Shown here: piece by piece, positions 7,726 to 55,492 of the stretch
Numbering within the stretch: position 1 is the first letter of the stretch
Layout: the number at the start of each line of letters is the position of its first letter
Origin: an uncultured archaeon
GTDB lineage: Archaea > Thermoproteota > Bathyarchaeia > Bathyarchaeales > Bathycorpusculaceae
Length of the DNA: 64,000 nucleotides
NCBI GenBank assembly: GCA_963782915.1
Contig: CAWALK010000025.1
Span: forward strand, 32,001-96,000
Reading direction: 5' to 3'
Position numbers and translations under genes: made by a program
The notes under the pieces: model-generated
Told to the model about the DNA's origin: nothing
What the model saw: only the letters and a program-made list of their open reading frames with translations
Databases searched by the model: none

Positions 7726-8040
7726 TTACCATCGCTTTTTTCGCTCGCCACTCAATTCACGAGTCAATACCCCAACGAAGTCCTGATGCTTCCTAAGTAT
7801 GTCATGCCATATGTGGCCTTTCTCAGTCAAAACAAATCCCTCATCTTTGTTTCCGGATATTAGTTTGTTCTGCTGTAGGTACTCTATTGTGTTATCTGTT
7901 TGGTATTGGTTACCTGCCCGTCTGTATACATCATACCAGACTGCTTTGCCCTTCTGAGTTTCTGCCGACTGGATAATGTCCAAGTATTCTTTGAGTCTTT
8001 CAGCCGCTCTAGAGGGTGGCGGCGAATGGGTTCGCGGCAT
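7726..8040 (-). CDS. Winged-helix-like small protein
   Basis: C-terminal FVLTEKG wing motif. Confidence 0.55.
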   Translation of the reverse strand: MPRTHSPPPSRAAERLKEYLDIIQSAETQKGKAVWYDVYRRAGNQYQTDNTIEYLQQNKLISGNKDEGFVLTEKGHIWHDILRKHQDFVGVLTRELSGERKKRW

Positions 8041-8043
8041 TAC

Positions 8044-8427
8044 TTAATCCCGTTTTGCTTTCTGTTCTCTGTATTCTTTCACTCGGAGACTTTTTTCGAG
8101 GCTAAACAATGTTTGGTATCGTGCATTGAGTTTGCTATAGCGATATAGTACACATGCGCCAGCGCCTATCGGTATCAAATTGACAAATATTACCCATATT
8201 GCAAGGAATCCGATGTTTGATAAGTCGATGCTGCCTGTTAGGTATAAGTAGAAGTCTAAGCCCAAACCGAATGCCAGCATGTAAAATCCCAGAAGGAAAT
8301 ATGCCGATACTGCCTCGTTTAGGTCTTTGGCGATTGTTCGGGCATCCTTTGAAAGCTCATCGTATACTATGTTTAGTGCTTTTAAGTCAGAGTCTATGGC
8401 TTGATTTTCATTTGACATATACTTCAT
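8044..8427 (-). CDS. Hypothetical membrane protein (2 TM)
   Basis: Two hydrophobic helices; coupled to downstream ORF. Confidence 0.6.
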   Translation of the reverse strand: MKYMSNENQAIDSDLKALNIVYDELSKDARTIAKDLNEAVSAYFLLGFYMLAFGLGLDFYLYLTGSIDLSNIGFLAIWVIFVNLIPIGAGACVLYRYSKLNARYQTLFSLEKSLRVKEYREQKAKRD

Positions 8428-35035: not shown

Positions 35036-36564
35036 ATGAAAGCTAAAGGCGGTCCCTTAGGCAAAATCTTCGGTTTCCTCAACACAGCATCTAGCGAAGA
35101 GAGAGAGAAAACCGAGACAGAGTTGCCTTTCGCAGTCATGATTTTCACTTTGATGGCTGCAAGCGGGATTTCGCCTTATGATAGCTGGAAGAAAATGCGT
35201 AAGATGACTTTTCTGCCCTTCTTCAAGAAGGAAGCAGATGAAGTCATACGACAAGTTGAGGTCCTCGGAAAGGATCCACTGACCGTTATGATTCAGCGAG
35301 CCGAAGAAACGTCGTCAAAGTTGTACCGTAACTTTCTTGGCGGCTTCGTGTCTTCGGTACGAAGCGGAGGCAAATTAGTCGATTACATGAAAAGCCAGCT
35401 TAAATCAATCTTTGAATTACGCTACATCAACCTTAACCGCTCAATCGATAAAATCGCTGCGTTGGTTGAAGCCTACTCAGTCATGCTCATCGTAGTATTG
35501 TGCGTTTACATACTCTTCGTTATCTTTTCGTCCTCAAGCGTTATGGATTTGCTTGCCAGCACTTCCATCTCGATTTCGCCAAGCATCTCCTACATCATAG
35601 CTTTCGTAGCCATGCCGGTTATGTCTTGTATTTTCATCCTCATGGCGCATAACATGCAGAAAAGCGCTTTCCCAAACCTAAAAGACGTCTACAAAAAAGC
35701 AATCATCTTCATAGTTCCCGCATTCGTAGTCATCGGCGTTTTCGGCATGATTGGTTCACTCACCGAAGCAATTAAACCACTTGGGCTTCCAGAAATCGCT
35801 ACCATCGCCCTCGTTGGCTCAACAATACCCGGTGCCATACAATACTATCGTATATCAAAAATCAACTATAACGCTGAAGAATCCATCCCCAGCTTCATCC
35901 GAGATATAACGGAATCCCAAAAAACTGGTCTTTCACCCGAAAAAAGCATAGTGCAAGCTACAAAACGCAAGGGTTATGGGTCATTCACAAAGTTTCTAGA
36001 TTTGATTCGAAGCCAAATAGAGTGGGGTATACCGCTTAGGAAAACTTTTGAAAACCTCCAAAAGGAAATCCGAAGCTGGTTTGTCGTCGTAAACTTTGCC
36101 ATGATGGTTGAAACCCTTGAAATCGGCGGCAACTCTATTCAATCACTTGAAATTCTCTCTGAATACAGCGAAAAAGAACGCGAAATACAAATCAACCGCC
36201 GAACACTCCTCAAGCCCTATATTATTTTGGCTTTCATGTGGAGCGCCTTAATCGCTGTTACAACAACAATCGTTGCCCTAACTACTACTATGATGACTGG
36301 CATGGTTAGTACTGATATCTCCGCAATGGCTACGATGGCTATGCAGAGATCAACTCCAAGTCTTCTCAGTCGGAATCATTATTCAATGCTGGATTTCAGG
36401 GTTCTTTATTGGAAAAATAAGCGAAGGGAACTTTGGAGCAGGCTTTAGAAACGCAGCTATGCTTGCAGCAACCGCATATCTGTCATTGGTGCTCTCGCAA
36501 TATCTACTGCAGGGAACATTCACTATGATTACGCCGCCAACCAGTAGTGGAGGGTCTCCCATAA
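35036..36564 (+). CDS. TadC/FlaJ-like pilus membrane platform protein (frameshift near 36345)
   Basis: Two T2SSF-type repeats (ELPFA..MAASG; IPSFIRDI..KTG) with multiple TMs. Confidence 0.88.
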
Positions 36565-37602
36565 CTGCCTTCCAGTTCCTTTGATACCTTCTTTGCTTGT
36601 ACCATCATCGTAGCAGCGGCGCTCATAGCTACGGCTTTTTTGGGCACAACCCTGCAGGCTAGAATCGCTAGCACAGATGATGTCAACAAGGATAGTTACC
36701 TCACAGCTATAGCTGACCGCATAGTAACCTACCCAGGAAGCCCCAACGATTGGGGAAAACGCCAAGATGTGCCCCAAGATTTCGGTTTAGCCGCCAGTGC
36801 ATCAAATGGCGCAAACGAGTTGGATATAGATAAGATCAGTCGGCTTAGCAGCCAAAACAGGTATGCATTAGGGTATGTTGAGTTGGTAAATGCTGCTCAA
36901 CTAAACGATATGGCTTTGGGAATCACGGTTTCACAGGTTATGACCCTCACTATTGAGCAATCCAGTAGTCATACCGTTGGCAGCGAAACCTATTCTACAG
37001 TGCATGTTTGGTCGAGCATTAACTCAAAGCCAACCGGCGCGAATTTGCATTGTTATCTTATTGCGGATAATTATGTAGATAACCTTACTGCGGTGATCCC
37101 TGAGTCAGGAACCTATACCTTAACTGTGCATCTTCCCAGCGCACTAGTTGATGATGCTTTGCTTGTAGTGTTTGCGAGGGCACCCTTTGATGACAGAATT
37201 ACCTCATACGCAACCTATAACTTATCGAGTGGAATCCAGCAAACAACACCCAACGGCACAACCCTATCAATGAGCCCACAGGATTATACACTTAGTTTCA
37301 ACCAATCAAGCGTCACAATTGGAAACGTTTACGCCTTAACCTATTCTTACATGCAAAACGTAACCTCAATCCAAACCTCAACTTGCGCAATCCCCAGATT
37401 AATCGATAACAGCCCATTTGTTCTGGTTGCCTGTGCAGGGAACGGCGCCAATTATGTCGAAGAGTGGACAGCTTATCCCCAAGTTCCCCTAAACGCGGGT
37501 TCCAGTTTTGAAGGTTCAGAACGCAATGTCTTCAGTTACTTAGTTACCGTTGATGGGGTGCTCTATCGGCTTGAGGTAAGCTTGGGAGATGTTAACCATT
37601 GA
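36565..37602 (+). CDS. Pilus accessory protein (frame opens at CTG 36565)
   Basis: PSSSFDTFFACTIIV hydrophobic N-terminus in frame with the 36640 ORF; PGSPNDWG motif. Confidence 0.7.
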   Translation: MPSSSFDTFFACTIIVAAALIATAFLGTTLQARIASTDDVNKDSYLTAIADRIVTYPGSPNDWGKRQDVPQDFGLAASASNGANELDIDKISRLSSQNRYALGYVELVNAAQLNDMALGITVSQVMTLTIEQSSSHTVGSETYSTVHVWSSINSKPTGANLHCYLIADNYVDNLTAVIPESGTYTLTVHLPSALVDDALLVVFARAPFDDRITSYATYNLSSGIQQTTPNGTTLSMSPQDYTLSFNQSSVTIGNVYALTYSYMQNVTSIQTSTCAIPRLIDNSPFVLVACAGNGANYVEEWTAYPQVPLNAGSSFEGSERNVFSYLVTVDGVLYRLEVSLGDVNH

Positions 37603-38024
37603 GGCGACTAATTAAAGACCAGAAGGGGCAAGTGCGCGTGATAGAAGCCTTCTTTGCTTCGATGCTGATTCTGTCCTGTTTGACGCTTATTCCAGCCCAA
37701 ACAACGGTGGATAGTCCTGATGACAACTTGGCATCTAAAGCTGAGAATGTCCTTGTAAGCCTTGATGGCAACGGGCAGTTAGGGCGGCTTATTGATAGCC
37801 GTGATTGGGTTGGGCTTGGCAATTGCTTGGAATCTGCTTTACCGCTTATGCTGTGGTTTAACTTAACAGTTTACGATGCAGATCAAAACTGCCTAAACTC
37901 CTATCCGATATGTAATGGCGGCGCTGTTAGCAACGAGGTTTCATCAATTACCTATGTTTGTGCCAGCCAAAACAGTACGTTTGCTGTGTATGTTTTGCAG
38001 TTGCAGCTGGCGAGGGTGGACTAA
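37599..38024 (+). CDS. Minor pilin
   Basis: KG-QVRVIEAFFASMLI class III signal. Confidence 0.8.
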   Translation: MRRLIKDQKGQVRVIEAFFASMLILSCLTLIPAQTTVDSPDDNLASKAENVLVSLDGNGQLGRLIDSRDWVGLGNCLESALPLMLWFNLTVYDADQNCLNSYPICNGGAVSNEVSSITYVCASQNSTFAVYVLQLQLARVD

Positions 38025-38025
38025 A

Positions 38026-38829
38026 ATGGCTCGTCGAAGTTTTAGGCGTGACTGTCGCGGCCAAGTTATCATTGTTAGCGCCTTGTTGGTGGCTTTGATT
38101 TTGCTTTCAACCGCAATCTATGTTATCGATATCCAAAAAGATGTGCCCATGGTCGAGACTGAAAATAGCGGCGGCTCAGTCAACGCGTATAAATCAAGTG
38201 TCAGGAATGCCTTGATTAGTGCTTTGGCAAACGTTACTGGTGGCGGCAGCTCAGCGATTTTAACATCTGATTTGGCGGAATTGAAGGCTGCTATTCTTGA
38301 GCATTCTTACCAATCCCTTACGCGGATGGATTATACTCTGCGGGACGGCGGCGTCTATTCGGATGGGGTTTGGGTTTCATGGGGCAACAGCGGCGATGGA
38401 GTGTCGAGTGCATATGTTTCCGTAACGATTAGTTCTAAAAGTTCCTCTGGCGGCTCAGAGGTGGCATATGCATTGAATGTGACGTCCCGTGTGCATGTAA
38501 GCGGCAGCTATGTGCAGCTTAATGAAACGCATAAGCAAGTCAATTTAACAGTGAACTATTACAGTGAATCAGGCGATGCGTTAGCACAAAACTTGGTTTT
38601 CAGCTACCAAAACGCTTCCAGTTGGGTAGCTGCAGAATCGCCCACAATAATCAACTATGGAAACGGCACATACACAGCCTCTTTCTATGCACAAACCAGC
38701 CAAGTTAGTGAGCCGTTGGATGTTTCAACATTATGTTTAGACACGAGAGGTATATCTGTAGGAGCAAACTTGACATGCAGTACGCATAACGTAATAGACA
38801 CTTTACTGGCAGGTTGGTTTGATGAATAA
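38026..38829 (+). CDS. Minor pilin
   Basis: RG-QVIIVSALLVALILL class III signal. Confidence 0.78.
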   Translation: MARRSFRRDCRGQVIIVSALLVALILLSTAIYVIDIQKDVPMVETENSGGSVNAYKSSVRNALISALANVTGGGSSAILTSDLAELKAAILEHSYQSLTRMDYTLRDGGVYSDGVWVSWGNSGDGVSSAYVSVTISSKSSSGGSEVAYALNVTSRVHVSGSYVQLNETHKQVNLTVNYYSESGDALAQNLVFSYQNASSWVAAESPTIINYGNGTYTASFYAQTSQVSEPLDVSTLCLDTRGISVGANLTCSTHNVIDTLLAGWFDE

Positions 38830-40144
38830 ATCCATTAAAGCTATAGTTGCGTTGATGATTGTTGCGATAGTTTTAACCATCGTTAGCATGGCGCAGACGT
38901 CTCAGCCTCTGAGTGTGGATGATGGTTCATTTTTGACTGTGTCTGAAGGCAAAGCTGTTTGGGCTCAAGCTTACGGTGGCTCAGCAGATGACCGCGCATT
39001 ATATGCCTTGCCGGTAGGCGATGGGTTTTTGGTTGTTGGTTCAACCCGCTCAGTTGTGAATGCAACGGTCGGGTGGGCTCTAATGCTTGACAGCCAAGGC
39101 AACCAACTTTGGAATCGTACTTATCTTGATGGGGCAGGAACCGAAATCCGCTGTGTAGCCAACACAAGCGATGGTTATTTGCTGGTTGGGAACCAGTTTG
39201 CGGCTTCCGGCGACATCAACGGCTACGTTGCAAAAGTTGACTTAGCGGGTGCCGTGGTTTGGCAAACAGTTGTCGGCGGCACAAAAATCGACAAACTCTT
39301 TAGCGGCGTCGTTGCAAGTGACGGGTTTGTTGTTTGCGGCTTAAGCTACTCCTATGGCAGCGGTGATGCGGAGTCTTGGGCAGTGAAACTGGATGGCAAG
39401 GGCGTAGTGGTTTGGAATAATGTTTACGGCGGCTACGTTGACGCTGCATTACGCTCAGCTGTGGTCGCTTCGGATGGCGGCTTCATTACGGCAGGTTATG
39501 TGGATGAGGGCGAGGGCAACTATGATTTTTACCTCCTAAAACTCGCCGATGATGGTAGCCGCGTATGGAATCACACTTACGGCGGATTTGACAGCGAGAA
39601 AGCTTACTCTATCACCCGAGCCCAGAACGGCTACGTAGTTGTGGGTGACGCGGCTTCAACCGCAACCAATACAGACGCTTGGGTCCTCAAAGTAGATTCT
39701 CAAGGCGCTCAGGTGTGGAGTAAAACGGTAGGGGGAAACAGCGCTGATTCAGCAGCCTACGTCACAGCCGCCAAATCCGGAGGCTACCTAATCTGCGGCT
39801 TCACATTCTCATTCGGCGAGGGCCAAAGGGATTTCTGGCTATTTAACATAAGCGAAGAAGGACAAGTAGGATTCAGCTGTACATTTGGTAACTCTGCATT
39901 CCAGGAAGCCTACGCCGTCATCGATGCAGGCGCAGGCGAATATGTCTTGGTTGGTTGGACTGATCCATTGGGGCAGCCTGAGTTGGTCGGCCGCGCCACC
40001 TACGACTTCTATGTAGTAAAACTTAGTCAAGGCGAAGTTGCCAGTAGTTTCTCTACGGTAACCCTAGTTTTGACTTTGGTTATCTTTGCGCTTTTAGCGG
40101 TAATTTTGGTTTTGCTGTTTCGGATGCGGGGAAACAAAAAATAG
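38822..40144 (+). CDS. Surface beta-propeller protein with C-terminal TM
   Basis: About seven W.xx.YGG..D..DGy.v.G repeats; signal peptide; membrane anchor. Confidence 0.85.
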   Translation: MNKSIKAIVALMIVAIVLTIVSMAQTSQPLSVDDGSFLTVSEGKAVWAQAYGGSADDRALYALPVGDGFLVVGSTRSVVNATVGWALMLDSQGNQLWNRTYLDGAGTEIRCVANTSDGYLLVGNQFAASGDINGYVAKVDLAGAVVWQTVVGGTKIDKLFSGVVASDGFVVCGLSYSYGSGDAESWAVKLDGKGVVVWNNVYGGYVDAALRSAVVASDGGFITAGYVDEGEGNYDFYLLKLADDGSRVWNHTYGGFDSEKAYSITRAQNGYVVVGDAASTATNTDAWVLKVDSQGAQVWSKTVGGNSADSAAYVTAAKSGGYLICGFTFSFGEGQRDFWLFNISEEGQVGFSCTFGNSAFQEAYAVIDAGAGEYVLVGWTDPLGQPELVGRATYDFYVVKLSQGEVASSFSTVTLVLTLVIFALLAVILVLLFRMRGNKK

Positions 40145-40182
40145 TTCAGCCAAAAAGGCTGTTTTTAGCCCAAAAGGGCTGT

Positions 40183-41064
40183 TTATTCTTCTGTTAGTTT
40201 GGAGAAGAGAATTTGCAATGTGTTTACGAGTGCTTTGTAGTTGGTCCAAATTGCTGCGGTGCGGAACTTCTTTTTAACGTCGTCTGTGTCGTCGTTGTCT
40301 TTTTCGTGGAATGTGATTAGGACTTCTTTTTTGTCTGCGATCATGAAGCATGGTAAGTTTTCTTCGTTGTTGCTGATTCGGTGTTGGCCGCTTAGCCAGG
40401 TCATTTCGCCTAGGAAGTATGCACTTTTGAGGCTGGTGTCTGTGATGACTGTTACGTTGACTTTGTCTGCTTGGGTTTTGAGTTTGTCGCTGAAGTCGTT
40501 GTAGTAGAGTTCGCTGAGGTAGTCTGCGGATGCGTAGATTTGGAAGGTTTCTACGCTGCGTTCGAGGAGTTCGTTGGCTTTCATCAGCACCTGTTGTTCG
40601 CCTTCTAGCATTTGGAAGAGTTCTTTTTTGGCGGTTTCCTGTTTTGCTTGGGGCATAGATTGCCAGAGTTCGACGAGGCTTGGTTTTTCTTGTTCGAGTA
40701 GTTTGATTTTGATTTTCTGTGCGTCAACGAGTAAGTCGATGGCTTTGTCTAGGGCTACTGCGGTGAATTTGAGTGGTTTTTCGAAGATTGAAAATACGAT
40801 GCCTTTCTTTTCTAGGTCGCGTAGGATGCGGTAGGTTTCTGTGCGGTGCAGTGCGATGGCTTCTGCGATTTCGCCGGCTTTCTTTTCGCCTGCGCGGGCA
40901 AGGTAGAGATATACACGGATCTCGTTTTTGAGTAGCCCAAATCTTGCGAGTGTTTCCTCGATTGATGCTAACTGCTTGACTACTGTTTGGTCTTTCTTGA
41001 CAAGTTTGTAACCATCCGATTGCTTGTTGTAGACCTTCATCACGTTTTCCATTGCAAGTGCCAT
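40183..41064 (-). CDS. TrmB-family transcriptional regulator
   Basis: FGLLKNEIRVYLYL..A.EIA..HRTETYRILRDLEKKG..KPLKF. Confidence 0.88.
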   Translation of the reverse strand: MALAMENVMKVYNKQSDGYKLVKKDQTVVKQLASIEETLARFGLLKNEIRVYLYLARAGEKKAGEIAEAIALHRTETYRILRDLEKKGIVFSIFEKPLKFTAVALDKAIDLLVDAQKIKIKLLEQEKPSLVELWQSMPQAKQETAKKELFQMLEGEQQVLMKANELLERSVETFQIYASADYLSELYYNDFSDKLKTQADKVNVTVITDTSLKSAYFLGEMTWLSGQHRISNNEENLPCFMIADKKEVLITFHEKDNDDTDDVKKKFRTAAIWTNYKALVNTLQILFSKLTEE

Positions 41065-44068: not shown

Positions 44069-44629
44069 AAAATCACCTCCTTACCTGTCTATAAATTGCT
44101 GCTCTACCAATGCCAGCCGTGTTTCTCTTCTTTCTTACTTTTAGCAAAAAGGCTTAATCCGATTGCAGCCGCAGCGGCTCCAATGCTTGCGATGGCTATA
44201 TACTTCTTATAGTGATGCAAAATCATTTCTCCTAAGGTAGCCATGGAAAAAAAATTAATAAAGTTGTGTTGTTACCAGATTGAAATACAAAAGCAGCAGA
44301 CATCATTAGTTAGTGTGTGTCCCAGTTGATGTAGCGGTAAAAATTGAACCAACCGTTTGCTAAACTGATGCGGTTCAGTATTGTATAGCGGCAGTTTATT
44401 GTTAAACTATTCCCGATATTCGCTGACTATCCTGAAGCGAATAAAGTTAGGTATCTATGACTTATCAAATTAGTCGTCGCCAGTTTGAGTTGCACTAAGG
44501 ATTAGTTGCAGCATCTATAGTGGGTGTGTTCGGTTGCTTTTCTAATGGGGAATGATGGTTTGAAACGCAACAGCGTTTTTTTGGCTACGAATAGAGGCTG
44601 GTCTGAATTTAAAAATTAATAGAGAAGTA

Positions 44630-44749
44630 GGCTGCCAGCTTTCCCAGGTTCACGTGGCCTAAGACCACACTACAGCTGGGAACGGAACACGGTTTAACTT
44701 CTGAGTTCGGTATGGGATCAGGTGGAACCCGTGCCCTTTGACCGGCAAA
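44630..44749 (-). rRNA. rrf: 5S rRNA
   Basis: CCTGATCCCATACCGAACTCAGAAGTTAAAC core; terminal stem TGCCGG/CTGGCA; about 120 nt. Confidence 0.95.
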
Positions 44750-44950
44750 CCCACCTCTACGTATCATCTTCTCCTTATAAGTGTTGTTTTTTTGTTTATA
44801 CTTTCCCAATTGATCTCTTGTTTGCCAAAATTGCTTATAGGCGGCGGCTGGGGCTGGTTGCTGTTGACTGGCCGACTATTCCTGTATGGTTCAGGCTAGC
44901 GCCCGACTGTATTGTGCTGTTCAATGCTGCTCGTTGTTTGCAGTCAGTCT

Positions 44951-45041
44951 TTATATAAGGGAGGGGGAGGGTCTTCTGAGGTAGGTAGGTCTAGTCTTTT
45001 TGTGCTTTTAATAGGGGTAGGGGGTCGTTGGCAAAGCAGCA
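44951..45041 (+). repeat. Dispersed intergenic repeat, long form, copy B
   Basis: Near-identical to 2342-2433. Confidence 0.85.
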
Positions 45042-45164
45042 AACCCTCCAACACCAAAACATGCCCTTCCCTGTTGCATTTCAAACCCTTCAACGTATAT
45101 ACCTGCATGTTAGCAACAAATAAAAGCGCATGATGCTGTATCGGCTACTAAGAGGATATTAACT

Positions 45165-45815
45165 ATGTCTGAACGATTTGCTAAGAAATGGGAAGCTAAA
45201 AAAGAAGGAGAGTCACTTTCAACATCAATCAAAAACAGCGTTAAAGCTCCTCCACCGCTAAAACCTGCCTTGGATGCAGCTACTCGCAAACTTGATATGC
45301 AAATCAGCAAACTCGATCAAGCTAATGAGCGTTTTACACAAAAAGACAAAGCCCTATTCGCCAAACTCGTTGACTCATATACCAAGCATGACCAAGCACA
45401 CGCAAACATTTACGCAACAGAATTAGCTGAACTGCGTAAAATGAGCAAACTCATCATGAACGCACGGCTCGCACTCGACCAAGTCGCACTCAGAATAAGA
45501 ACCGTATCAGAATTAGGCGACGTTGTCTCAGCATTAGGTCCATGCATCGGCGTACTGCGCAGCGTATCCAGCGGACTAGGCGGCGTACTCCCAGAAGCAG
45601 AAGGCGAACTCGGCGACATCGGCAACATGCTAAGCGGCTTAATGTTCGAAGCAGGCAGCTCAAGCGGTATGTCACTAAACTTCGACAACGTAAACGAAGA
45701 CGCATCAAAAATCTTAGCCGAAGCAGCCACCGTTGCAGAACAGAAAGTCAGCGCCAACTTCCCAGACCTTCCACCCGGAATGCCTGGAACAGCAAAAGCT
45801 AAAAGCCAACAATAG
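45165..45815 (+). CDS. Snf7/ESCRT-III (CdvB-like) protein
   Basis: Coiled-coil core, ANIYATELAELRK, LDQVALRIRTV.ELGD, P.AE.EL, KILAEAA..AE, FPDLP. Confidence 0.88.
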   Translation: MSERFAKKWEAKKEGESLSTSIKNSVKAPPPLKPALDAATRKLDMQISKLDQANERFTQKDKALFAKLVDSYTKHDQAHANIYATELAELRKMSKLIMNARLALDQVALRIRTVSELGDVVSALGPCIGVLRSVSSGLGGVLPEAEGELGDIGNMLSGLMFEAGSSSGMSLNFDNVNEDASKILAEAATVAEQKVSANFPDLPPGMPGTAKAKSQQ

Positions 45816-46135
45816 AATAAACTTCCCAACCTTTCCTTTTTTGTTTTCTTTTTTTGCAGCAACACATATATCCCTAAAACATCGCTAACAATTCTGGTGT
45901 AAACTTGGATTCACCTCATCTGTGCCCAGAATGCTATGTGGAAATGAAACCAAAATGCGACAGCACTGGCCGACTGATTTATCATCAATGCCCCAAATGT
46001 GGTATGCTAATTTTATTCACCCACTCCGGACACTAAAACCTGTTTTGCTATGGTTGTATCCTGCCGGAACAGGCTGTTCTAAAGCTTGGACTTATATGTA
46101 GCTGCCCATGATACTTCGGGGAGGGCATCAACCGG

Positions 46136-46582
46136 TTGAACACCAACAGCGAAACGGAGTTAGAATACGCTCTACGCGGCAAAGCTTGGAAAGTATATTG
46201 GTTTCTGCTAAAAAACGGTGCCCCAGCAGGCGTGCGCGAAGTTCAACGTGCCCTACATTTCAGTAGCCCAAGCATCGCCTTTCACCACCTCGAACAACTC
46301 AGGGAGTTGGGGTTGGTTGAGAAGCAAGAAGTCGGCGGACATTACGTTTTGGTTGGCCAAGTTAAAATCGGTGTACTCAAACATTACGTGAAACTTGGCA
46401 AACTACTCTTTCCGCGTTACTTCTTCTATGCGCTGTTCTCAACGCTATTCTACGGTTTGTATTTGGCGTTGATGGTTCACAGTTTCACCCGCGACAACCT
46501 CTTCATCATCACTTTTGGCGCGATTGTCTGCGGAATCTTTTGGTATGAAGCTTACCGCATTTGGGGTATGAGGCCATTCTAA
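46136..46582 (+). CDS. Winged-helix protein with two C-terminal TMs
   Basis: GVREVQRAL.FSSPSIA.HHLEQL. Confidence 0.8.
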   Translation: MNTNSETELEYALRGKAWKVYWFLLKNGAPAGVREVQRALHFSSPSIAFHHLEQLRELGLVEKQEVGGHYVLVGQVKIGVLKHYVKLGKLLFPRYFFYALFSTLFYGLYLALMVHSFTRDNLFIITFGAIVCGIFWYEAYRIWGMRPF

Positions 46583-46657
46583 TTAGTAGTACAGCATGTT
46601 CGTGGGCTTAGCATCAAATAAAAACATGCCTAATGATGAAAGTGGAGAAAAAGGTAT

Positions 46658-48648
46658 ATGGTTCAAAAAGAAGTCAAAAAGAAAACTGGCATTTACGCAT
46701 TAGTAGCTGTGCTTTCGGCTGTTGTTTTAGTTTCTATGGTTTATTCATTGGGTTCTTACCCGGCGCTTTCGCCCGTCGCTCAATTGCCTGCGGTTTCGGG
46801 CATGAAAACTTTTTCGTCAGTGGATGAAATAAAAAATTATTTGAATTCAAACTCGCTTAATTCGCCTTTAGTATCTTCACCTAACGAATATTGGGCGCGA
46901 CCCGATGCGGCATTTACTTCGGGCTCAACCGATAAGGGTACCTACGGAGTAACTACTGATTACTCAACCACAAACATACAGGTTGCAGGAGTAGATGAGG
47001 CAGACACCGTAAAAACAGACGGCCAATACATCTACACCCTATCCAGCAAACAATCTATCAGTCCATACTACTCATACGATTCCTTTTCTCAGGCAAGCAA
47101 CAACATCTACATAGTAAGCGCTAACCCACAAAACCCCTGATGTTATATCCAAAATTGTCTTAGACAAACAATCTACTCCAATGGGGATTGTTTCTAAGCT
47201 CCGATAGCAAAAAACTGGTTGTATTCGAAAGCAAATACCAAAGTTCCCCCTATGGTTCAAGAGAAATAACGATTATGCCCTACTACAGCAGCCAATTCAC
47301 CGCCATCTACGTCTATGATATCTCAAACAAAGCATACCCCACTTTAGCTCGCAACTTAACTGTGACTGGAAACTATTTCAATTCACGTATGATCGGCAAC
47401 TATGTTTACGCGGTAACAAGCCAAAGCGCCTACATCTATGACGATGTTGTGCCGGTTCCAGCCCTCTACAACGGCGGTACCGTTTCTGCCTCTTCCCCTT
47501 CAAGTATCTACTACGCAGACATGAACCAATCCAGTAGTTACTCCTTCACAAGCTTCTACGGATTAGACCTATCAAACGATTTGGAGCAACCCGCCAAAAT
47601 GACCGTGCTCATGAGCGGCGCCAGTACAATGTATGTTTCCCCAGATAACATCTATGTCGCTTACCCCAACTGGGTAAACGGCTCCGGCGTAACCGCCATT
47701 TACAGAGTAAAAATCGACGGTTTACAGTTAACCCTTCAAGCACAAGGCAATGTTCCCGGCTACACGATTAATCAGTATGCCATTGACGAATACAGCGGTA
47801 ACCTGCGAATAGCCACTAATCTCTGGCAGTACACTGCTCAAAGCGATGTTTTCGGTGGACAGCAGGGTGCACAAATCAACAACGTCTATGTCCTCGACCA
47901 GAATCTCACCATTATCGGTAGACTTGAGGGTTTAGCAGTCGGCGAAAACCTCCATTCCGTTCGATTCATGGGTGAACGGGGCTATTTGGTCACGTTTAAA
48001 ACGACTGATCCTCTCTTTGTCATCGACTTAAGTCAACCCAGTAACCCAACGGTGCTAGGCGAACTCGTAATCCCAGGCTACTCGGATTATCTGCACCCAT
48101 ATGACGCGACACATTTGATCGGTGTGGGAAAAGAAGCTGTTGACTCAGGCCATGACTTCGCTTATTACCAAGGCGTCAAGTTAGCGCTCTTTGACGTTAG
48201 CAACGTAAACAATCCAATTCAGGTAGCGAACTATGTCATCGGCGACAGAGGCACCGACTCAGCGGTTCTAAATGACCCCAAAGCTTTCCTCTTCGACAAA
48301 ACCAAAGACCTGCTTGTAATGCCCATTAGTTTGGCGTTGGTAAGTGAAGAAAATCGGCAGCAACAAGGCAGCGCTGCTTATGGCCAAACCGTTTGGCAAG
48401 GCGCATACGTCTTTAGCGTTTCAGCAAACGGCAACTTTACACTAAAAGGCACCGTAACACACCTAGACGCTTCATTGCTAAACAGCACAGGATACCTAAA
48501 CGACAGCAACAACTACTACACAACCCAAAACCAGTGGATAACACGCTCACTCTACATCGACAACACACTCTACACCATCTCAAACTCCGAAGTCAAACTC
48601 AACAGCCTAACCAACCTCTCAGAAATCGCCACAGTGCACCTATCATAA
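46658..48648 (+). CDS. Secreted beta-propeller domain protein (frameshift near 47138)
   Basis: STTNIQVAGVDEAD.VKTDG, VTF...DPLFVIDLS, IPGYSDYLHP. Confidence 0.88.
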
Positions 48649-48863
48649 AACATCTTAATTCTTCCTTTTTTTCTTGTCAGAGCTCAACTGCATTTTTTTC
48701 TCTATCCCCCTTATTTATAGGCTCAACAAGTGTAGGCTCAAAGTCAAATGGGCAATGCATCCATTAGGGAAAGTATTGCGTTCAGCAGGCGTTTGTTGGT
48801 TAACCACTGATTATTTGATGCATTTGCAATTTAAGCCTGCTCAGCTTGCGGTGCCCGAGCTTT

Positions 48864-48955
48864 TGTTGCTCTGCCAAGACCGCCCTATCCCCTACAAAAA
48901 GCATCAAAAGAAGGGACCTACCTACCTCAGAAGACCTCCCCCTCCCTTATATAAA
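48864..48955 (-). repeat. Dispersed intergenic repeat, long form, copy C
   Basis: Reverse complement reads TTATATAAGGGAGGGGGAGGTCTTCTGAGGTAGGTAGGTC..GTAGGGGATAGGG..TTGGCAGAGCAACA. Confidence 0.85.
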
Positions 48956-49338
48956 GACTCAATATCTGTTGGCTAAGCTGATGCCTGCATGCACATGCGT
49001 TAAGATGTTCCATATTCTGTTGGGCGACTGTGGGGTTAGGCTGGTTTTCTGTGAGCGTTTGCCGCAGTCCTGCAAGCGCAAAGGGCAAACAGTCGCCGAT
49101 AAAGCATCCACCGCAAGTCGCAGGGTAGCCCGATTAGCCGAATGCCACAAATACAGAAGGCGGGTTACAACCAATACACCACCCAATTAACTGCCGCAGA
49201 AACAATTAATTTCCGCTTCGCTCCTTTATAGCGAGTAGCTCTGCTTCTGCGCTTTCTTTGGGAAAAAAAGTTGCAAAATCTTCTATGCCTTCCGCTGATC
49301 AAATATTGATCTATTTTTTACGAAAAGAACTGCGTTTT

Positions 49339-49611
49339 CTAAAGCATATTTACTGCTTCTTGTCGGGGTATCGCTACAAGTGTTTCGGTTGTTACCCATT
49401 TGGAAATGCCCATTGCAGTTTTTAGAGCTTCCTTTTCGTTTGCTGCCTCAAAAATAAATACAACATCATATTGTCCCAGTGTCCAATACCAATTTAGCAC
49501 TTTTATTCCCTTTTTCTTGTACTCCTCAATTAGTTGTGTGGCGTCTCCTGCTGTTTCTTTTGTGGGGGTTATTATGAATTTGTTTAGGCTTACAAAAATC
49601 AAATCATTCAC
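49339..49611 (-). CDS. GYD-domain protein
   Basis: YWTLGQYDVVFIFEA, TETL.AI. Confidence 0.85.
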   Translation of the reverse strand: MNDLIFVSLNKFIITPTKETAGDATQLIEEYKKKGIKVLNWYWTLGQYDVVFIFEAANEKEALKTAMGISKWVTTETLVAIPRQEAVNML

Positions 49612-49919
49612 CTCCGGCCCATAGAAAACTCCAAGAAAAATTCATTTGAATCTAATTAAATAACGTTATTTCAAGCCTTTCTTTGAATCTGCCTGAACCA
49701 ATCAGGCTCAATCCTCAAATTCAACCCCCAGTTTCTTCCATGTATAGAGCTAAACCTCTAAGGTGGGTTACAACCAATACCCGACCCAATTAGTTAACCT
49801 CCATGCAAGTAGGAATCCGTTTTTCGTTGACAGGCAATTATAAAACACGAAATAAAAGAAAGAGAGATTTCGTTGACGATTTACCGCATAAAACTTGCGT
49901 TATACCATCGGTTAAACGC

Positions 49920-50400
49920 ATGGGCTAATTTTTTAGCCACTGCTCTCAACACCAGTCTCAATCGTCTCGGTCTCTTCGGGTGAAGCTGTACGCATTTGTT
50001 TTTTGCTTTTTATCTTTTGCTCCTTTGCCCTTTACTTCTTCTTCTGTTAATGTGGTTTCTATCGGTACTTTTTCCTTCGAAGCCCCGACATAATGCATCT
50101 GCTACTTCTAGGAGTTTTAGTATGGCTTGCTCGGAAAACATTCCACTAGTCCTGATAATCCTGCAATTACAACCACATTTAATGCCATAACTGCTGCGCC
50201 AATCGTTAATAACCCTCCTCGAATTAAAAGATAGAAAATAAAGGCTACCCCCGCTCCGAGAAGTGGTCGAACAGCATACCATGATCTGTACCGCACATAA
50301 TCAAAATCGTTCTCTCTACCTAAATGGTGAGACGCTGCCCAGAGGAAAAAAGGCATGCACTCTATGGCGCCTGAAACCATCATAACAACAACAAGCAGAG
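49920..50400 (-). CDS. Hypothetical membrane protein, split over frames (limits approximate)
   Basis: WYAVRPLLGA..FYLLIRGGL and GMFSEQAILKL.EVA in adjacent frames. Confidence 0.55.
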
Positions 50401-50974
50401 TTTCATGCGACCCACAAACGATAGAACCGAACGTGTGAAAAGGAAATTATCCGATTGTAGTGTTAATATCGTTAATTTGATTAAAAGCAGGTAAGTTGTA
50501 TGATTGAATGTGCTTGTAGCATTGAGATCCGGAATCTTCTGTGGCAGCAGGCCAAGCACCTATCATACAAATATGCCGGATAACGAGAAGTATTACGAGT
50601 TGAATATATTATCAGATAGACGTGCTCCCTTTCGGTCAGAATCATCTGTTTGATGTACCATAAATTTAACCTATAATTCAATTAACAGGTCTAAGTATTT
50701 AAGACTTAATAAAATGACCATATATAGCTTGCAATAATGAACATATGGCGATGGATTGGTTATAGAAAATTACTGATCCTTAAGGCGGGTTACAACCAAT
50801 ACACCACACCACTTCTTTACCTTTTTAGCGTATCTTCCAGAAAGCAAGGGCTCTGTTCTTGCAATACGATATTAGTTCTAAGATAATTTGAATAATTGAG
50901 AATAGTAAAAGAGGCGTAACTGGCAACTAACTGGCTTTGCAATTTTTCGTCTGCTAAGGTCCTATAGCCCTTAT

Positions 50975-51662
50975 TTATAGTACTGAAGTTAGGATGATGA
51001 CCAAAGCTAAGATAAAGAGCGCTAAAGCAGCGTAGTATAGGCCATATTTTAGTTTCTTTGCGAAGGACGGGGCTCTCCTCAACCCATAAACCGATGCTGA
51101 ACATTAGGATTACGGCTATTATCCATGACAAGTAGAGTGCTGTTTGGATGTAGAGCCCAAACAATCCTAGGATTATCGGCACCAATATTACAAATGCTGC
51201 CCCACCATTCAAACCCATATCAGCCAAAATTATCGTGGCGCTTTCTTTGTAGGGTGGATGTTTCTCTTGCTCACTTTGGGCAAGGTTAGCGACCACATTA
51301 TCAATGATTTTCTTCTTGTCCTCATCATTTACTACATTGAAGACTGAATCCTCAAGGTCTTCCTCCACCATGCCACGGCTTAGTCTTCGCTTTTCCTCTG
51401 ACTTCGCATAATCGATCATAGCGTTCTTCCTCTTGGCAGTGTGGTAGTTTTCGAATACGTAAAAGATTCCATCAGCAAAACCCCAAATGAGGCAATAGCC
51501 CATAGAAGAAGCGATTACGTAGATGACTGCGATGTCAGTTATAATTGGGCTTCCCCATATTACGGGGTTTCTAAGAGTAGCGGTCAGGGCTAATGTCATT
51601 ATGACTCCAAAGATGGGTTCAGACGAGAACCAGAACCGTCCGAAATAATCCGATAGCCCCAA
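50975..51662 (-). CDS. VIT1/CCC1-like membrane protein (probable frameshift near 51060)
   Basis: SEPIFGVIM..C.IWGFADG N-terminal TMs, acidic cytoplasmic loop, C-terminal TMs. Confidence 0.6.
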
Positions 51663-51956
51663 AAACAGTTCCTCATGATGTTAAGCAAAATAGGGCACTT
51701 AACAATTTGTGGCTTCATAACAATGCCAACAGACATCTAAAGGCTTATAACTAGAGCGTAACGAAGGATGATCAGTGTTTAAAATTGAGTGAAGATAATA
51801 AGAAATTACTAAGCCCAAAGGCGGATTACAACCAGCAAACCTGTCGGTCATCTGGACAGAACCTGCCGCCAATAGTAACCTGAAAAACTCATAATTCAGA
51901 CTACTTTTTAGAAAGACTTGAGTACCCAAAAGTGCACTGTTTGAGTAGTGACCTTT

Positions 51957-52538
51957 ATGGCAGACAAAATTTCTTTGGGCGCTAATTCTTTTGCCCCAGT
52001 AACCCCCGTTTGGGTAGTCGGCACATATGACCATGCTGGAAAACCGAATGCTATGACGGCTGCATGGGCAGGGGTTTGCTGCTCTAAACCTCCATGCGTT
52101 TATGTTTCACTAAGAAAAGCTACCTACACATACGGCAACCTCATGGAGCGTAAGGCGTTTACTGTTAGTTTTCCCTCGGAGGCTTATGTTAAAGAAGCTG
52201 ACTATTTTGGGATGGCTTCGGGGAGAGATTCTGACAAGTTCGCAGTTACTAAGCTTACGCCTGTGAAAAGTGATCTTGTGGATGCACCGTACGTGGGGGA
52301 ATTTCCAGTAATCTTGGAGTGCAAGGTAATCAATATAGTTGAAATCGGGTTGCATACGATGTTTATCGGCGAAGTCCTCGATGTTAAAGCCGACAAGAGC
52401 GTGCTAGGTGAGAATGGGATGCCTGATGTTGAGAAAGTGAAGCCGCTGATCTGGAGTATGGCAAACATGTCCTATCGCAAGGTCGGAGGGCACGTGGGGA
52501 AATCGTTCTCGGTTGGCAAGGATGTAAGCAAATCTTAG
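51957..52538 (+). CDS. Flavin reductase-like (flavoredoxin) protein
   Basis: PVWVVGTY..KPN.M.AAW, DYFG..SG..DKF, LECKV, GLHT.FIGEV. Confidence 0.9.
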   Translation: MADKISLGANSFAPVTPVWVVGTYDHAGKPNAMTAAWAGVCCSKPPCVYVSLRKATYTYGNLMERKAFTVSFPSEAYVKEADYFGMASGRDSDKFAVTKLTPVKSDLVDAPYVGEFPVILECKVINIVEIGLHTMFIGEVLDVKADKSVLGENGMPDVEKVKPLIWSMANMSYRKVGGHVGKSFSVGKDVSKS

Positions 52539-52733
52539 TTATCAAATAGTTCACCTTGCAAAAGCTACTGCTTCATTCCTAATTTTGACCCCTAAACTCC
52601 TCTTCCCTATCTTAAGGCATATAAGGAGACTTGACAGCAAAAATTCAGCAAGCCAGCATACGGTTGATAAGCGTACAAGATACGGATAATGTATTTATTA
52701 ATCGTGAAACAGATTGATACTTAGGTGTTTTAA

Positions 52734-53021
52734 GTGATAAGTTTTGAAAATTTAATTGGTTATAAAGTGTTAACTTCTGAAGCTTTTTCTTTGGGCGTTG
52801 TTAAAGGAGCGTTAGTTGACACTGAGAAATGGACCATAACATATTTGCATGTAAAAATAAACGATGAAGCAGCAACAAGGCTTGGATTCAAGAAGCGGTT
52901 TAGAAGTTCTACCATATGCCTGCCCGTCAGTATGGTTAAGGCTATTGGAGATTACGTTACAATTGGCAGATCCTTAGACGAGTTAAGCGAATCTCAAGAG
53001 ATTACTGAGTGCAACGAATAA
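52734..53021 (+). CDS. PRC-barrel domain protein
   Basis: LIGYKV.T..A..LG.V..VD..W.I; P...V.AIGD.V. Confidence 0.8.
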   Translation: MISFENLIGYKVLTSEAFSLGVVKGALVDTEKWTITYLHVKINDEAATRLGFKKRFRSSTICLPVSMVKAIGDYVTIGRSLDELSESQEITECNE

Positions 53022-53083
53022 GCAGGCAAAAGTGCTATAGTTCTCGAGAATATGGGTAAAGAGACGTTAAAAAAAGGGTTTAG

Positions 53084-53248
53084 TTAGAGTTTTCTTTTGG
53101 CTTTGCCGACGTCTTCTTGGATTTTTCCTTGTACTTTTTCTGCTTCGCCCTTGATTATTTGACCAGTGTTGCCAGTAGCTTTGCCCGTGCCTACGCGGAT
53201 TTTGCCTTCTTCCTGTTTGAGTTTACCTTTAACTTCGTCTTTGCTCAT
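53084..53248 (-). CDS. CsbD-family stress protein (54 aa, below ORF-track cutoff)
   Basis: Translated by hand: MSKDEVKGKLKQEEGKIRVGTGKATGNTGQIIKGEAEKVQGKIQEDVGKAKRKL. Confidence 0.8.
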   Translation of the reverse strand: MSKDEVKGKLKQEEGKIRVGTGKATGNTGQIIKGEAEKVQGKIQEDVGKAKRKL

Positions 53249-53568
53249 AAAATTTCACTAACAGACTGGTGTCTCCACGATTGTATAAGCATATGTGACT
53301 GCTAACAGGCACTAACAAGCAACAAGCCATCGCAAATTCTTTTTTGTTGTTAAAGGATCTATTTAGAGATTGGGGTGAGATGGTTTCTTGAAAACCGTTT
53401 GATTGGTCGAATGCAGTCACGAGAGCACGTTGTTTCTTGTTTTTCTTCGTCTTTCTTGCCGAATTTCGTTTTTTGTTAGTTCCCGTAAATAATATACGCA
53501 TGAAATAATCTCAAACCTTCTTTACGCCAATTATTAGTAACTTTTCTCCACAGATAGGGCATGTTTGC

Positions 53569-53911
53569 TTAGGAGAATACGAAGCCAATGACAAAACCCA
53601 CGACTAGTCCTAAACCAAGTGGCAGAATGCCCATGAGAAGTACCCCATATTGAACTACAATAGGGACCATAAGTGTCTGCAATGCTTTGCAAGGCACCAA
53701 GACTTAAGCCGAAAAACCCAAAATAGGCGACCACGACCAATATAATGGCAGCTATAATCGCAATTTTTAGTACCTTGTGGAATAGGTAGCCGACGATAAG
53801 GCCAATGACAAATGGAATAATCATCAAAACTAATGGTGGAATACCCCCTATGCTTCCAGAAGTGATAAAATTAATGACTTGGTCTATGGCACTCAAAATA
53901 AGCGACTCCAA
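53569..53911 (-). CDS. FUN14-like small membrane protein (frameshift near 53660)
   Basis: PFVIGLIVGYLFHKVLKI..YFG; C-terminal GFVIGF in alternate frame. Confidence 0.6.
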
Positions 53912-54130
53912 ACAAGTAAGGGGGTGATTACAGAGGCTATTAAACGCACGTTGTTGCAGTCACGCAGTCACAAGGTTTGGATATCCCTAAAGGGCATTCT
54001 CCCAGCAAGCAATGGCTCTGTCTTGCAACAATAATCCGATAATCTGAAATTCATTAAAAAATGTAAAGAGCGCATAGTAAAAGTCCTTATTCTGGCAAAA
54101 CAGAGAATAAACCAATCTTAGGTGTTTTGA

Positions 54131-54361
54131 ATGAGCGAAAAACAACAAGGCAAACTTTTTGACAAAATGTGGGAACTACTTGGCTCTAAAATGATTGATT
54201 CAGGAAAACAAAACGTAGCAGAAGTGGAGAAACTTTTCAAAACGGTACTATACGAGGCAAAAACAGATTTCCCCAGAATAACCGAATACGGTAGCTTCTT
54301 TTACGCTGACGGCGAGAAAGAAGCCATCATATGGTATAAAAAATGGTTTGGCGCTCCCTAA
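54131..54361 (+). CDS. Hypothetical protein
   Basis: 76-aa ORF with AGGTG upstream. Confidence 0.6.
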   Translation: MSEKQQGKLFDKMWELLGSKMIDSGKQNVAEVEKLFKTVLYEAKTDFPRITEYGSFFYADGEKEAIIWYKKWFGAP

Positions 54362-54617
54362 CACCGAGTTAGCCGTCAATACATCTTCTGTCAATTTCAG
54401 AAAATGGGGTCGTTCCCCACTCTCAATTGTAAGAACCCCTCCGCTTTGCTGTGCTACCGGTACAACAACACATCTTTTTTAAAGAATTACATCTTCCCTC
54501 TTAGCGGATGTCACATTTTGAATAAGGCAGAAGCCACAAATCTGCTCAGACAAATAATTTCATTTTGAAGGATTAAGCGCAGAAACAGAAATTTTTTTTC
54601 TTTGAGCACCAAATAAG

Positions 54618-54998
54618 TTGAAGCTTCTAGGTGATTTTTTGGATAAAAATCAAGCACTTAAATTGTTAGAGGAGATAAAACTGAACTGTCCACGGATTGA
54701 CGAAAAAACGGTGTCTTTGAATGAATCAAATGCTTTGGATGTAGCTTCAAGAGGTTTTCAGATATTTGTCGGTGGAATAGACAAAGATGATCGTACATGT
54801 ATCAGAAAAGCAATAGGCCAATACGATTATCTCATCAAGGAAGGTCCCGACCGTATGATCATCTATGACCCTGCAGAGTTGAAGTGTCCCGAATGCGGCA
54901 AAATATTTGAAACAACAAGGGAACTAAAGACACACATAACAGGGGTACATTATAGCAAGGAATTTGAACAAACCGAGATGCCAACCGGCGAAATGTAA
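54618..54998 (+). CDS. Protein with C-terminal C2H2 zinc finger
   Basis: CPECGKIF..L..H...H. Confidence 0.7.
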   Translation: MKLLGDFLDKNQALKLLEEIKLNCPRIDEKTVSLNESNALDVASRGFQIFVGGIDKDDRTCIRKAIGQYDYLIKEGPDRMIIYDPAELKCPECGKIFETTRELKTHITGVHYSKEFEQTEMPTGEM

Positions 54999-55492
54999 CT
55001 CTCGGATTCCTTACTGCCGGTGATTACCCAGTAATGCAATCTTGCCTTTGAGCAACCATAGGCAACAAGCGTATGAAAAACAATCTCGACTAAACACATG
55101 GATATTGAGGAGCCCTTATGCTTAAGGGGCAAACTATTATGGCATCCATAACATTGTTATTGCTTAACAATGGGTGGATGGCAAAGACTTGTGTACTTTT
55201 GCCCAATCGTGCACACTTCCCCTCCCTTCCACCCATTGCGGTTTACCCCTAAAGCAGCAAAGCTCTGCTCCGAAACCGTTCGAGGGGCCTGCAAAAAGAG
55301 CCGTTTTTTGGTATTTTGGGCAGCCGTAGAGGGAAATGCAAAATGTATCCTGAAGTATGAATTGAAGTTACAAATTGTATTCTCACTCTGTTGCTAACGG
55401 ATGTTAAATACTACTTGCACTCACAGGCAAATTAAGCGAACACACGAAAGCTAGTGTTTTCGCTAAAAAATTATTTAGAGGAAAAACAGCGA

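Follow-up and report, generated by a model that had tools for sequence, protein, structure and literature searches.

A decayed array of RNase P RNA gene ends in a Bathyarchaeia genome, probably left by integrative elements

The SSV-type or "suicidal" integrases of archaeal elements such as SSV1/SSV2, pTN3 and pT26-2 carry the attachment site of the element (attP) inside the integrase gene, near its 5' end, and integration divides that gene into two pieces, int(N) and int(C) (PMC8371274, a 2021 review covered here in part). PF16795 (Phage_integr_3) is the domain given there for the SSV, pTN3-like and pT26-2-like suicidal families, and the term "RNase P" is absent from the part covered. In this report, we describe four direct repeats in a 64,000-nucleotide (nt) stretch of DNA from an uncultured archaeon of the Bathyarchaeia; the whole stretch is referred to below as the window. 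The repeats copy the 3' end of rnpB, the gene for the RNA of RNase P. We consider it very probable that they are a decayed array of attachment (att) sites from integrative elements that target rnpB and carry att inside the open reading frame (ORF) of their integrase.

As in the SSV-type systems (PMC8371274, in part), att lies within the integrase ORF, close to the 5' end, and integration separates int(N) from int(C), as relatives of the window's genome show; the elements target a stable RNA gene at its 3' part, which is restored, and tandem and decayed copies accumulate. Unlike those systems, the target here is rnpB rather than a tRNA gene, and the hosts are Bathyarchaeia known only from metagenome-assembled genomes rather than hyperthermophiles. 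Further, PF16795 was found in none of 17 rnpB-linked integrases at E<=1, whereas all 17 match PF00589 (the family assignment being that of PMC8371274, in part), and two integrase lineages without mutual BLASTP similarity share the architecture, with att read in all three frames across integrase subgroups. By Pfam, the underlying system does not belong to the PF16795 suicidal families, its target is not a tRNA gene, and the array in the window is probably a decayed instance of it.

Two other kinds of locus invite comparison. Islands and prophages at the 3' ends of tRNA and tmRNA genes likewise have inserts bracketed by direct repeats that copy the end of a small-RNA gene, serial arrays and orphan gene-end fragments; there, however, the integrase is whole and attP lies outside it, whereas here att is integrase coding sequence, and the array in the window stands on a pseudogene fragment far from the real target. 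Integrons, with their IntI integrase, attI site and arrays of attC cassettes, have also been reported in Archaea. The window resembles them in that short single-gene units, all oriented alike, are arrayed in order between recombination sites, but it has no adjacent IntI-type integrase and no attC hairpins, its sites are copies of the end of a host gene, and its units appear to be deletion remnants. We found no report of rnpB as an archaeal integration site in the literature, coverage of which was partial and without supplements and included PMC13573593, PMC8371274, PMC10848311, PMC2516327 and PMC2386152.

Four copies of the end of rnpB

All coordinates are positions in the window, which lies on contig C25 of its own genome, G000. 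The features on which the argument turns are the following, where Int(N) denotes the head of a split integrase gene.

49043 to 49184, plus strand: pseudo-rnpB, a 3' fragment (about 120 to 140 nt) without the CR-I/P4 5' strand and the specificity domain; RF00373, 33.7 bits
49157 to 49189, plus strand: att copy 1, attL-type (rnpB sequence on its left); 25 of 26 nt match the end of the true rnpB
49760 to 49792, plus strand: att copy 2; 22 of 26 nt match the rnpB end; right flank CCCAATTA, as in copy 1
50764 to 50781, plus strand: Int(N) remnant before copy 3; in-frame ..RKLLIL, then KAGYNQYTT; more decayed than the one before copy 4
50782 to 50807, plus strand: att copy 3, attR-type; 25 of 26 nt match the rnpB end; 26 nt identical to copy 1
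51785 to 51817, plus strand: Int(N) remnant before copy 4; TTG start, (M)SEDNKKLLSP, then KADYNQ
51818 to 51841, plus strand: att copy 4, attR-type, the most decayed; 21 of 26 nt match the rnpB end; homology to the related genome G008 ends exactly here

The first-pass annotation, made from the letters of the window, had listed four direct copies about 0.6, 1.0 and 1.0 kb apart, and these were found on one strand with starts at 49157, 49760, 50782 and 51818 (start-to-start spacing 603, 1022 and 1036 bp). The 15-nt core GGYGGRTTACAACCA has five matches in the window at up to two mismatches, against 0.31 expected, and none of 100 shuffles gave five; the fifth, a minus-strand match at 46051 with two mismatches, looks like chance. 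The longer 33-mer is exact in copy 1 only, has three mismatches in copy 2 and leaves copies 3 and 4 unmatched at up to three mismatches.

The true rnpB of this genome is on another contig (G000:C15:218743-219046, minus strand), where it scores 184.5 bits over the full RF00373 model of archaeal RNase P RNA. Its closing bases, ...ACAGAAGGCGGGUUACAACCAAUACAC, are the repeat sequence. At copy 1 the resemblance extends further to the left: window positions 49064-49184 are 90% identical over 122 nt to the true gene (G000:C15:218738-218858), and a permissive Rfam cmscan returned RF00373 at 49043-49180 with E 3e-7 and 33.7 bits, against a gathering score of 84. The alignment there covers only the 3' part of the model (a P15-type region, CR-V and the 3' strands of P4 and P1), with 154 model positions, CR-I included, deleted, and a complete RNase P catalytic core (P4 from CR-I and CR-V) above the gathering threshold is absent at copy 1. 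Copy 1 thus sits inside a 3' rnpB fragment, non-functional and without the catalytic core; copies 2 to 4 are no more than the last 26 or so bases of the gene. The repeat is therefore not a new recombination site; what was found is what the first-pass annotation had itself named as the contrary case, a decayed multicopy gene.

Two other identities for the repeat region were considered and rejected. The idea of a tRNA fragment fails because ARAGORN detects no tRNA, either in the window or where the repeat occurs elsewhere in the genome. A coding reading around copy 1 fared no better, as the ORFs at 48846-49190 (plus strand) and 48959-49186 (minus strand) have no Pfam match. A paralogue of the copy-1 region on contig C12 carries two single-base indels relative to the window.

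The symmetry of the repeat, GGTT-AC-AACC, had been noted as an inverted repeat around a dinucleotide. It is one in the window, but relatives carry GGTTACATCC, GGTTACTGCC, GGTTACGACC and other variants, and the symmetry is therefore incidental rather than a conserved feature; the motif is the junction and 3' strand of rnpB helix P1. Nor is there an attC-like hairpin, in agreement with the earlier remark that canonical attC structure is lacking: 71-nt single-strand DNA folds of the copies, on both strands, gave z of -1.52 to +1.39 relative to shuffles.

The flanks of the copies fall into two types. On the right, about 8 nt (CCCAATTA) are common to copies 1 and 2 and resemble the element-side extension in relatives (CACGCCCAAT..); copy 3, which had been thought to share this flank, does not have it. 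On the left, copies 3 and 4 share a flank as proposed, with 77% identity over 44 nt, and it is here that the Int(N) remnants lie. The codons before copy 4, TTG-AGT-GAA-GAT-AAT-AAG-AAA-TTA-CTA-AGC-CCA, read (M)SEDNKKLLSP, and copy 4 is accordingly an Int(N)-side junction in which ATG has become TTG.

As had been stated before, the window contains no recombinase: tblastn with the integrase of the related genome G003 and a PF00589 scan both failed to detect a tyrosine recombinase there. A PF00589 scan of the whole genome gave four weak fragments (up to 26.7 bits), none of them on C25, and tblastn gave weak integrase pieces on C11, C12 and C15 and, beyond the window, on C25. The genome may encode an integrase that is absent from the assembly, which is 93.5% complete.

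Integrase genes joined to rnpB in relatives

We searched 61 genomes, 36 of them of the same genus, for arrays of the rnpB end. Same-strand arrays on a single contig are present in five of the 61 (G000, G003, G008, G031 and G035), and their content differs between genomes. In G008, the proximal copy is the true rnpB (181.6 bits), which runs in frame into a 422-amino-acid (aa) tyrosine recombinase (PF00589, 57.7 bits). G003 has an rnpB-like sequence whose end forms the first copy and continues in frame (KAGYNQHT..) into a 306-aa ORF, also a tyrosine recombinase (PF00589, 62.5 bits); two further copies follow 4.5 and 11 kb downstream of the first. The two integrases have no BLASTP similarity to each other (E 1.7). 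The G008 type has PF00589 and SAM-like domains only. In a PHROGs scan of 11 proteins, the G003 integrase alone gave a match, to an integrase. The tyrosine recombinase catalytic domain (R, K, R, H, Y) is present in the rnpB-linked integrases: in an alignment of the 17, R128, K153, R222 and H245 are invariant and Y254 is nearly so, residues that presumably take the catalytic roles of the family.

The far sides of these arrays carry the counterpart of the remnants in the window. In G003, G008, G031 and G035, a short conserved frame, M-S-E/K-..-K-K-L-L-S/R-P/L, stands before the distal copies and runs in frame through att as KAGYNQHT. A degenerate pattern for this Int(N)-att junction found 26 metagenome loci, all of which read ..KLL[SR][PL]|KAGY.. 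and most of which also have an M[SG].. start ahead. At four of the 26, Int(N), att and about 90 residues of a G008-type N-domain stand in one ORF.

How often these integrases adjoin rnpB was gauged in wider samples. The G003 integrase has relatives in 149 of 201 genomes across the order. The rnpB CR-V motif lies within 200 nt upstream in 15 of the 30 best G003-type loci, with one more (L069) whose contig starts inside the motif, and the upstream sequences of the motif-bearing loci are recognisable rnpB 3' regions. Most of the remaining loci have no CR-V motif upstream, and several of those without it read like tRNA gene ends, to judge from their sequence. The G008-type integrase has a match in 30 of 151 genomes; among the 15 loci examined of the 30 returned, four have the CR-V motif, and these are four of the five best. 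A large protein collection contains 461 integrase homologues at E 1e-20. Twelve of 16 that were sampled begin with translated rnpB (..ARVARLAECH..QKAGY.., MPQxQKAGY.. or ..GSPISRMPQ.TKGGLRP..), in three, GY.QHTSP comes after a head that is not rnpB, and the last has an unrelated N-terminus. Most of what a contig scan returned (77 of 80 loci) is titled Bathyarchaeia or Bathyarchaeota. In family searches meant to place the organism, McrA had no match; nor did AmoA, whose controls were silent as well, so that its blank carries no weight. Among viral contigs, a single-protein scan found no relative and a profile scan found only distant ones (24 to 32% identity).

At loci L065 (G042) and L074 (G119) and in proteins P0018 and P0120, the integrase ORF starts at an ATG in the conserved GAAUGCC segment of rnpB (MPSLNRRRVT.., MPQxQKAGY..); thus a "split" integrase may remain a complete ORF. 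A separate observation concerns L044 (G035:C1:1262000-1278000), where the usual order is reversed: at 7766-8365, an rnpB-like 3' end has its att 571 nt downstream of an Int(N)-att junction. Three genomes (G013, G020 and G029) have several rnpB-end copies each, on different contigs and with differing P1 variants (TTACAGCC, TTACTGCC, TTACGACC); these may be att variants imported by elements from other hosts, or the assemblies may be mixed. In the window's own genome, the true rnpB has no second copy nearby, and its downstream flank resembles that of rnpB in the sister species G265, which suggests that the true site is unoccupied.

Should the pattern hold up, integration into rnpB, an essential ribozyme gene, would be frequent in a major class of uncultured archaea, and the rnpB end with an in-frame integrase could serve as an annotation marker for mobile elements of Bathyarchaeia. 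The translated rnpB at the start of many public "integrase" calls would also be explained. Further, a design with att inside the integrase would exist outside PF16795 and outside hyperthermophiles, in two unrelated lineages, which bears on the single-origin view (PMC8371274, in part).

Origin of the array

The mechanism that we propose runs as follows. Elements of Bathyarchaeia would carry tyrosine integrases with attP within the opening 15 to 25 codons of their own gene. Integration at the end of rnpB would restore the 3' end of the RNA and split the integrase gene. The body of the integrase, Int(C), would come to be fused behind rnpB, and the head, Int(N), would lie at the far side, before the second att copy. 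Repeated integrations would stack elements and att copies, and later deletions would shrink the elements. The stack in the window would have been built on the non-functional 3' fragment rather than on the true gene, with copy 1 as the rnpB-side junction and copies 3 and 4 as Int(N)-side junctions, the Int(C) parts having been lost; the three interval genes would be leftover element cargo or captured accessory DNA.

Because Int(N) codons stand before the far copies and the rnpB end is fused to Int(C) in relatives, the repeats are read here as attL/attR scars. The first-pass annotation had likened the flanks to such hybrids, and the Int(N) remnants left of copies 3 and 4 and the rnpB sequence left of copy 1 bear this out. 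We infer that the array arose by integrations like those in the relatives, with the rnpB fragment as a secondary landing site, and that it is now an immobile fossil. What had been called a cassette array would then be an ordinary fossil of mobile-element integration, and its intervals seem to be what remains of integrated elements rather than cassettes built for the purpose.

The expectation of one minus-strand gene per interval was confirmed, in that each of the three holds one minus-strand ORF.

49339 to 49611, minus strand: GYD-domain gene, interval 1; Pfam PF08734, 46.3 bits
50117 to 50383, minus strand: 88-aa hydrophobic ORF, interval 2; no known family
50817 to 51662, minus strand: VIT1-like membrane protein gene (281-aa ORF) with an altered C-terminus, interval 3; relative in G008

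The 88-aa ORF has no Pfam or PHROGs match and no tblastn match elsewhere in the genome or in the compared loci, and the DNA of interval 2 has no match in 100 genomes of the genus. The 281-aa ORF has no Pfam match at E<=1. In a protein-atlas search, the clusters nearest to its intact relative have VIT1 in 14-45% of members (score 0.93), and "VIT-like" is a lead rather than a family assignment. That relative, a 228-aa protein of G008, aligns through residues 1-205 to window 51662-51048 at 90%; its last 23 residues were not recovered, and the gene in the window therefore has an altered C-terminus, the normal one having apparently been lost.

At the DNA level, interval 3 and copy 4 together show 87% identity to the interval that closes the rnpB array of G008, the homology stopping exactly at att. 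The core genes left of the array reach only 64 to 71% between species of the genus. This difference would be a signal of mobility. Among the matches listed from the 61 genomes, interval 3 is common to G008 and G076 only, and in G076 the VIT1-like gene has no att flanks.

Several facts weigh against the decayed att array as we read it. The intervals in the window measure 0.6 to 1.0 kb versus 3.6 to 6.5 kb in relatives, and their genes bear no mobile-element hallmark. No Int(C) is left, and the right flanks of copies 1 and 2 have no detectable integrase homology. The GYD interval and one att scar are kept at the same place in G265, and interval 1 is therefore old and stable. Further, the array lies away from the true rnpB, which looks unoccupied.

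A broader reading, which we regard as doubtful, would make rnpB a permanent landing pad for integrases that carry att in their own gene, that evolved independently in at least two lineages and that are not truly "suicidal"; it would also add integron-like accretion. On that account, rnpB would supply transcription and often an in-frame start from GAAUGCC (MPxxQKAGY.., MPSLNRRRVT..), thereby keeping the integrase body expressible. The expressed integrase could mobilise integrase-less mini-units (att, gene, Int(N), att), of which the VIT1-like unit common to the window and G008 would be an example, and rnpB and decoy rnpB fragments would act as an integron-like accretion site.

Accretion by itself, as an integron-like platform, we rate as improbable. 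Units of att, gene, Int(N) and att would be mobile cassettes, excised as circles and re-inserted by an integrase acting in trans, with the rnpB end or a decoy as the capture site. The like layout of att, VIT1-like gene, Int(N) and att in G008, at the 87% identity given above, would suit it, as would the variable content of rnpB arrays between genomes, the uniqueness of interval 2 among 100 genomes of the genus and the report that elements with a split integrase can be excised by a related incoming integrase (PMC8371274, in part). However, the window has no integrase and the genome only weak fragments of one, the copies have no attC-like structure, the VIT1-like gene of G076 lacks att flanks, that of the window has an altered C-terminus, and the GYD interval is fixed in G265. 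Of the integron-like gene-capture idea, then, the origin by site-specific recombination stands; the capture platform does not, given sites that are the rnpB end, no resident integrase, no attC hairpin, a fixed GYD interval and a lost C-terminus.

Gene order and sequence around the array

The left edge of the array adjoins a dispersed sequence.

48690 to 48965, plus strand: a dispersed promoter-like motif (..CCCCCTCCCTTATWTAWAG..), present twice, with the beta-propeller gene on one side and the rnpB fragment on the other

The promoter-like module, about 45 nt (..ACCTACCTACCTCAGAG..CCCCCTCCCTTATWTAWAG), recurs genome-wide, often as two in tandem. Short-blast gave 46 matches to the motif in the genome, and its core has 128 matches at up to one mismatch; blastn of the window against its own genome gave many partial matches at the motif, two of them long at 85-90%. 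The motif is not present upstream of the true rnpB. We rejected the rnpB fragment and the stretch between the promoter-like motifs as candidates for a functional small RNA (RNA-fold z +0.86 and +0.66). Of the 101 genomes searched in the genus, only two contain the 5' half of the transcript region of the rnpB fragment.

A second ectopic rnpB fragment, at G000:C12:62646-62884, has the same junction to the promoter-like repeat and is 78.6% identical over 243 nt; the rnpB fragment is thus duplicated in the genome. In this region (62646-65628; locus L008, 6646-9628) the att of the fragment itself is degenerate, and a good att lies 2.7 kb downstream, overlapping the last codons of a 484-aa secreted beta-helix protein.

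Gene order points to further change. In G265 (G265:C5), ..AACAG-AAGGCTGGTTACTGCC.. lies within about 40 nt downstream of the beta-propeller gene, ahead of the GYD gene, so that interval 1 stands there also after an att scar directly behind the beta-propeller gene; the stretch is 79% identical to window 49149-49709. The att copy of G265 differs in its core, and window 48673-49148 has no counterpart there. The gene order common to the two runs from about 44611 to 49709 and ends about 50 nt before copy 2. Beyond the GYD gene, L187 (G265:C5:40000-59999) has 4.4 kb without a counterpart in window 36000-64000, and then homology to 36025-41049. The comparison shows a rearrangement with one endpoint next to att copy 2. 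In other relatives, the genes that flank the array on the left and right are on separate contigs or far apart, and the array is therefore at a rearrangement junction. Unit 1 is old and was inherited vertically; units 2 and 3 are specific to the lineage.

These facts bear on the possibility that the copies spread without site-specific recombination, by segmental duplication, gene conversion or insertion of reverse-transcribed 3' pieces of RNase P RNA. The duplicated rnpB fragment, with its promoter-like repeat junction, and the break in gene order relative to G265 and other relatives would both fit such an origin. Copies 2 to 4, however, share one starting base, AAGG, and the codons of Int(N) before copies 3 and 4, as at the 26 metagenome att junctions, are not produced by duplication or retro-insertion; we hold this origin to be very improbable. 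Least credible of all, with hardly any chance of being right, is the view that the repeats are functional cis elements of the minus-strand genes (a site bound by a regulator, or one targeted in antisense by the 3' end of the RNase P RNA). On the minus strand they do lie about 150 to 400 nt upstream of the ORF starts, but at varying distances; copy 4 has decayed to 21 matches of 26, relatives do not conserve the palindrome, the G265 copy has a different core, and the fold controls are flat.

The array had been described as AT-richer than the core genes, which holds relative to the left (GC content 0.37 to 0.42 versus 0.43 to 0.48) but not to the right, where the flank (52400-55000) is also at 0.39 to 0.40.

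Two observations concern the genes to the left. The beta-propeller protein (PF09826; window 46658-48648) is split between two ORFs, one of 160 aa (profile positions 1-32) and one of 486 aa (58-494), which may reflect a frameshift, a pseudogene or an assembly error. A 5S rRNA gene at 44630-44749 on the minus strand (72 bits) is the sole Rfam match at the gathering threshold in the window.

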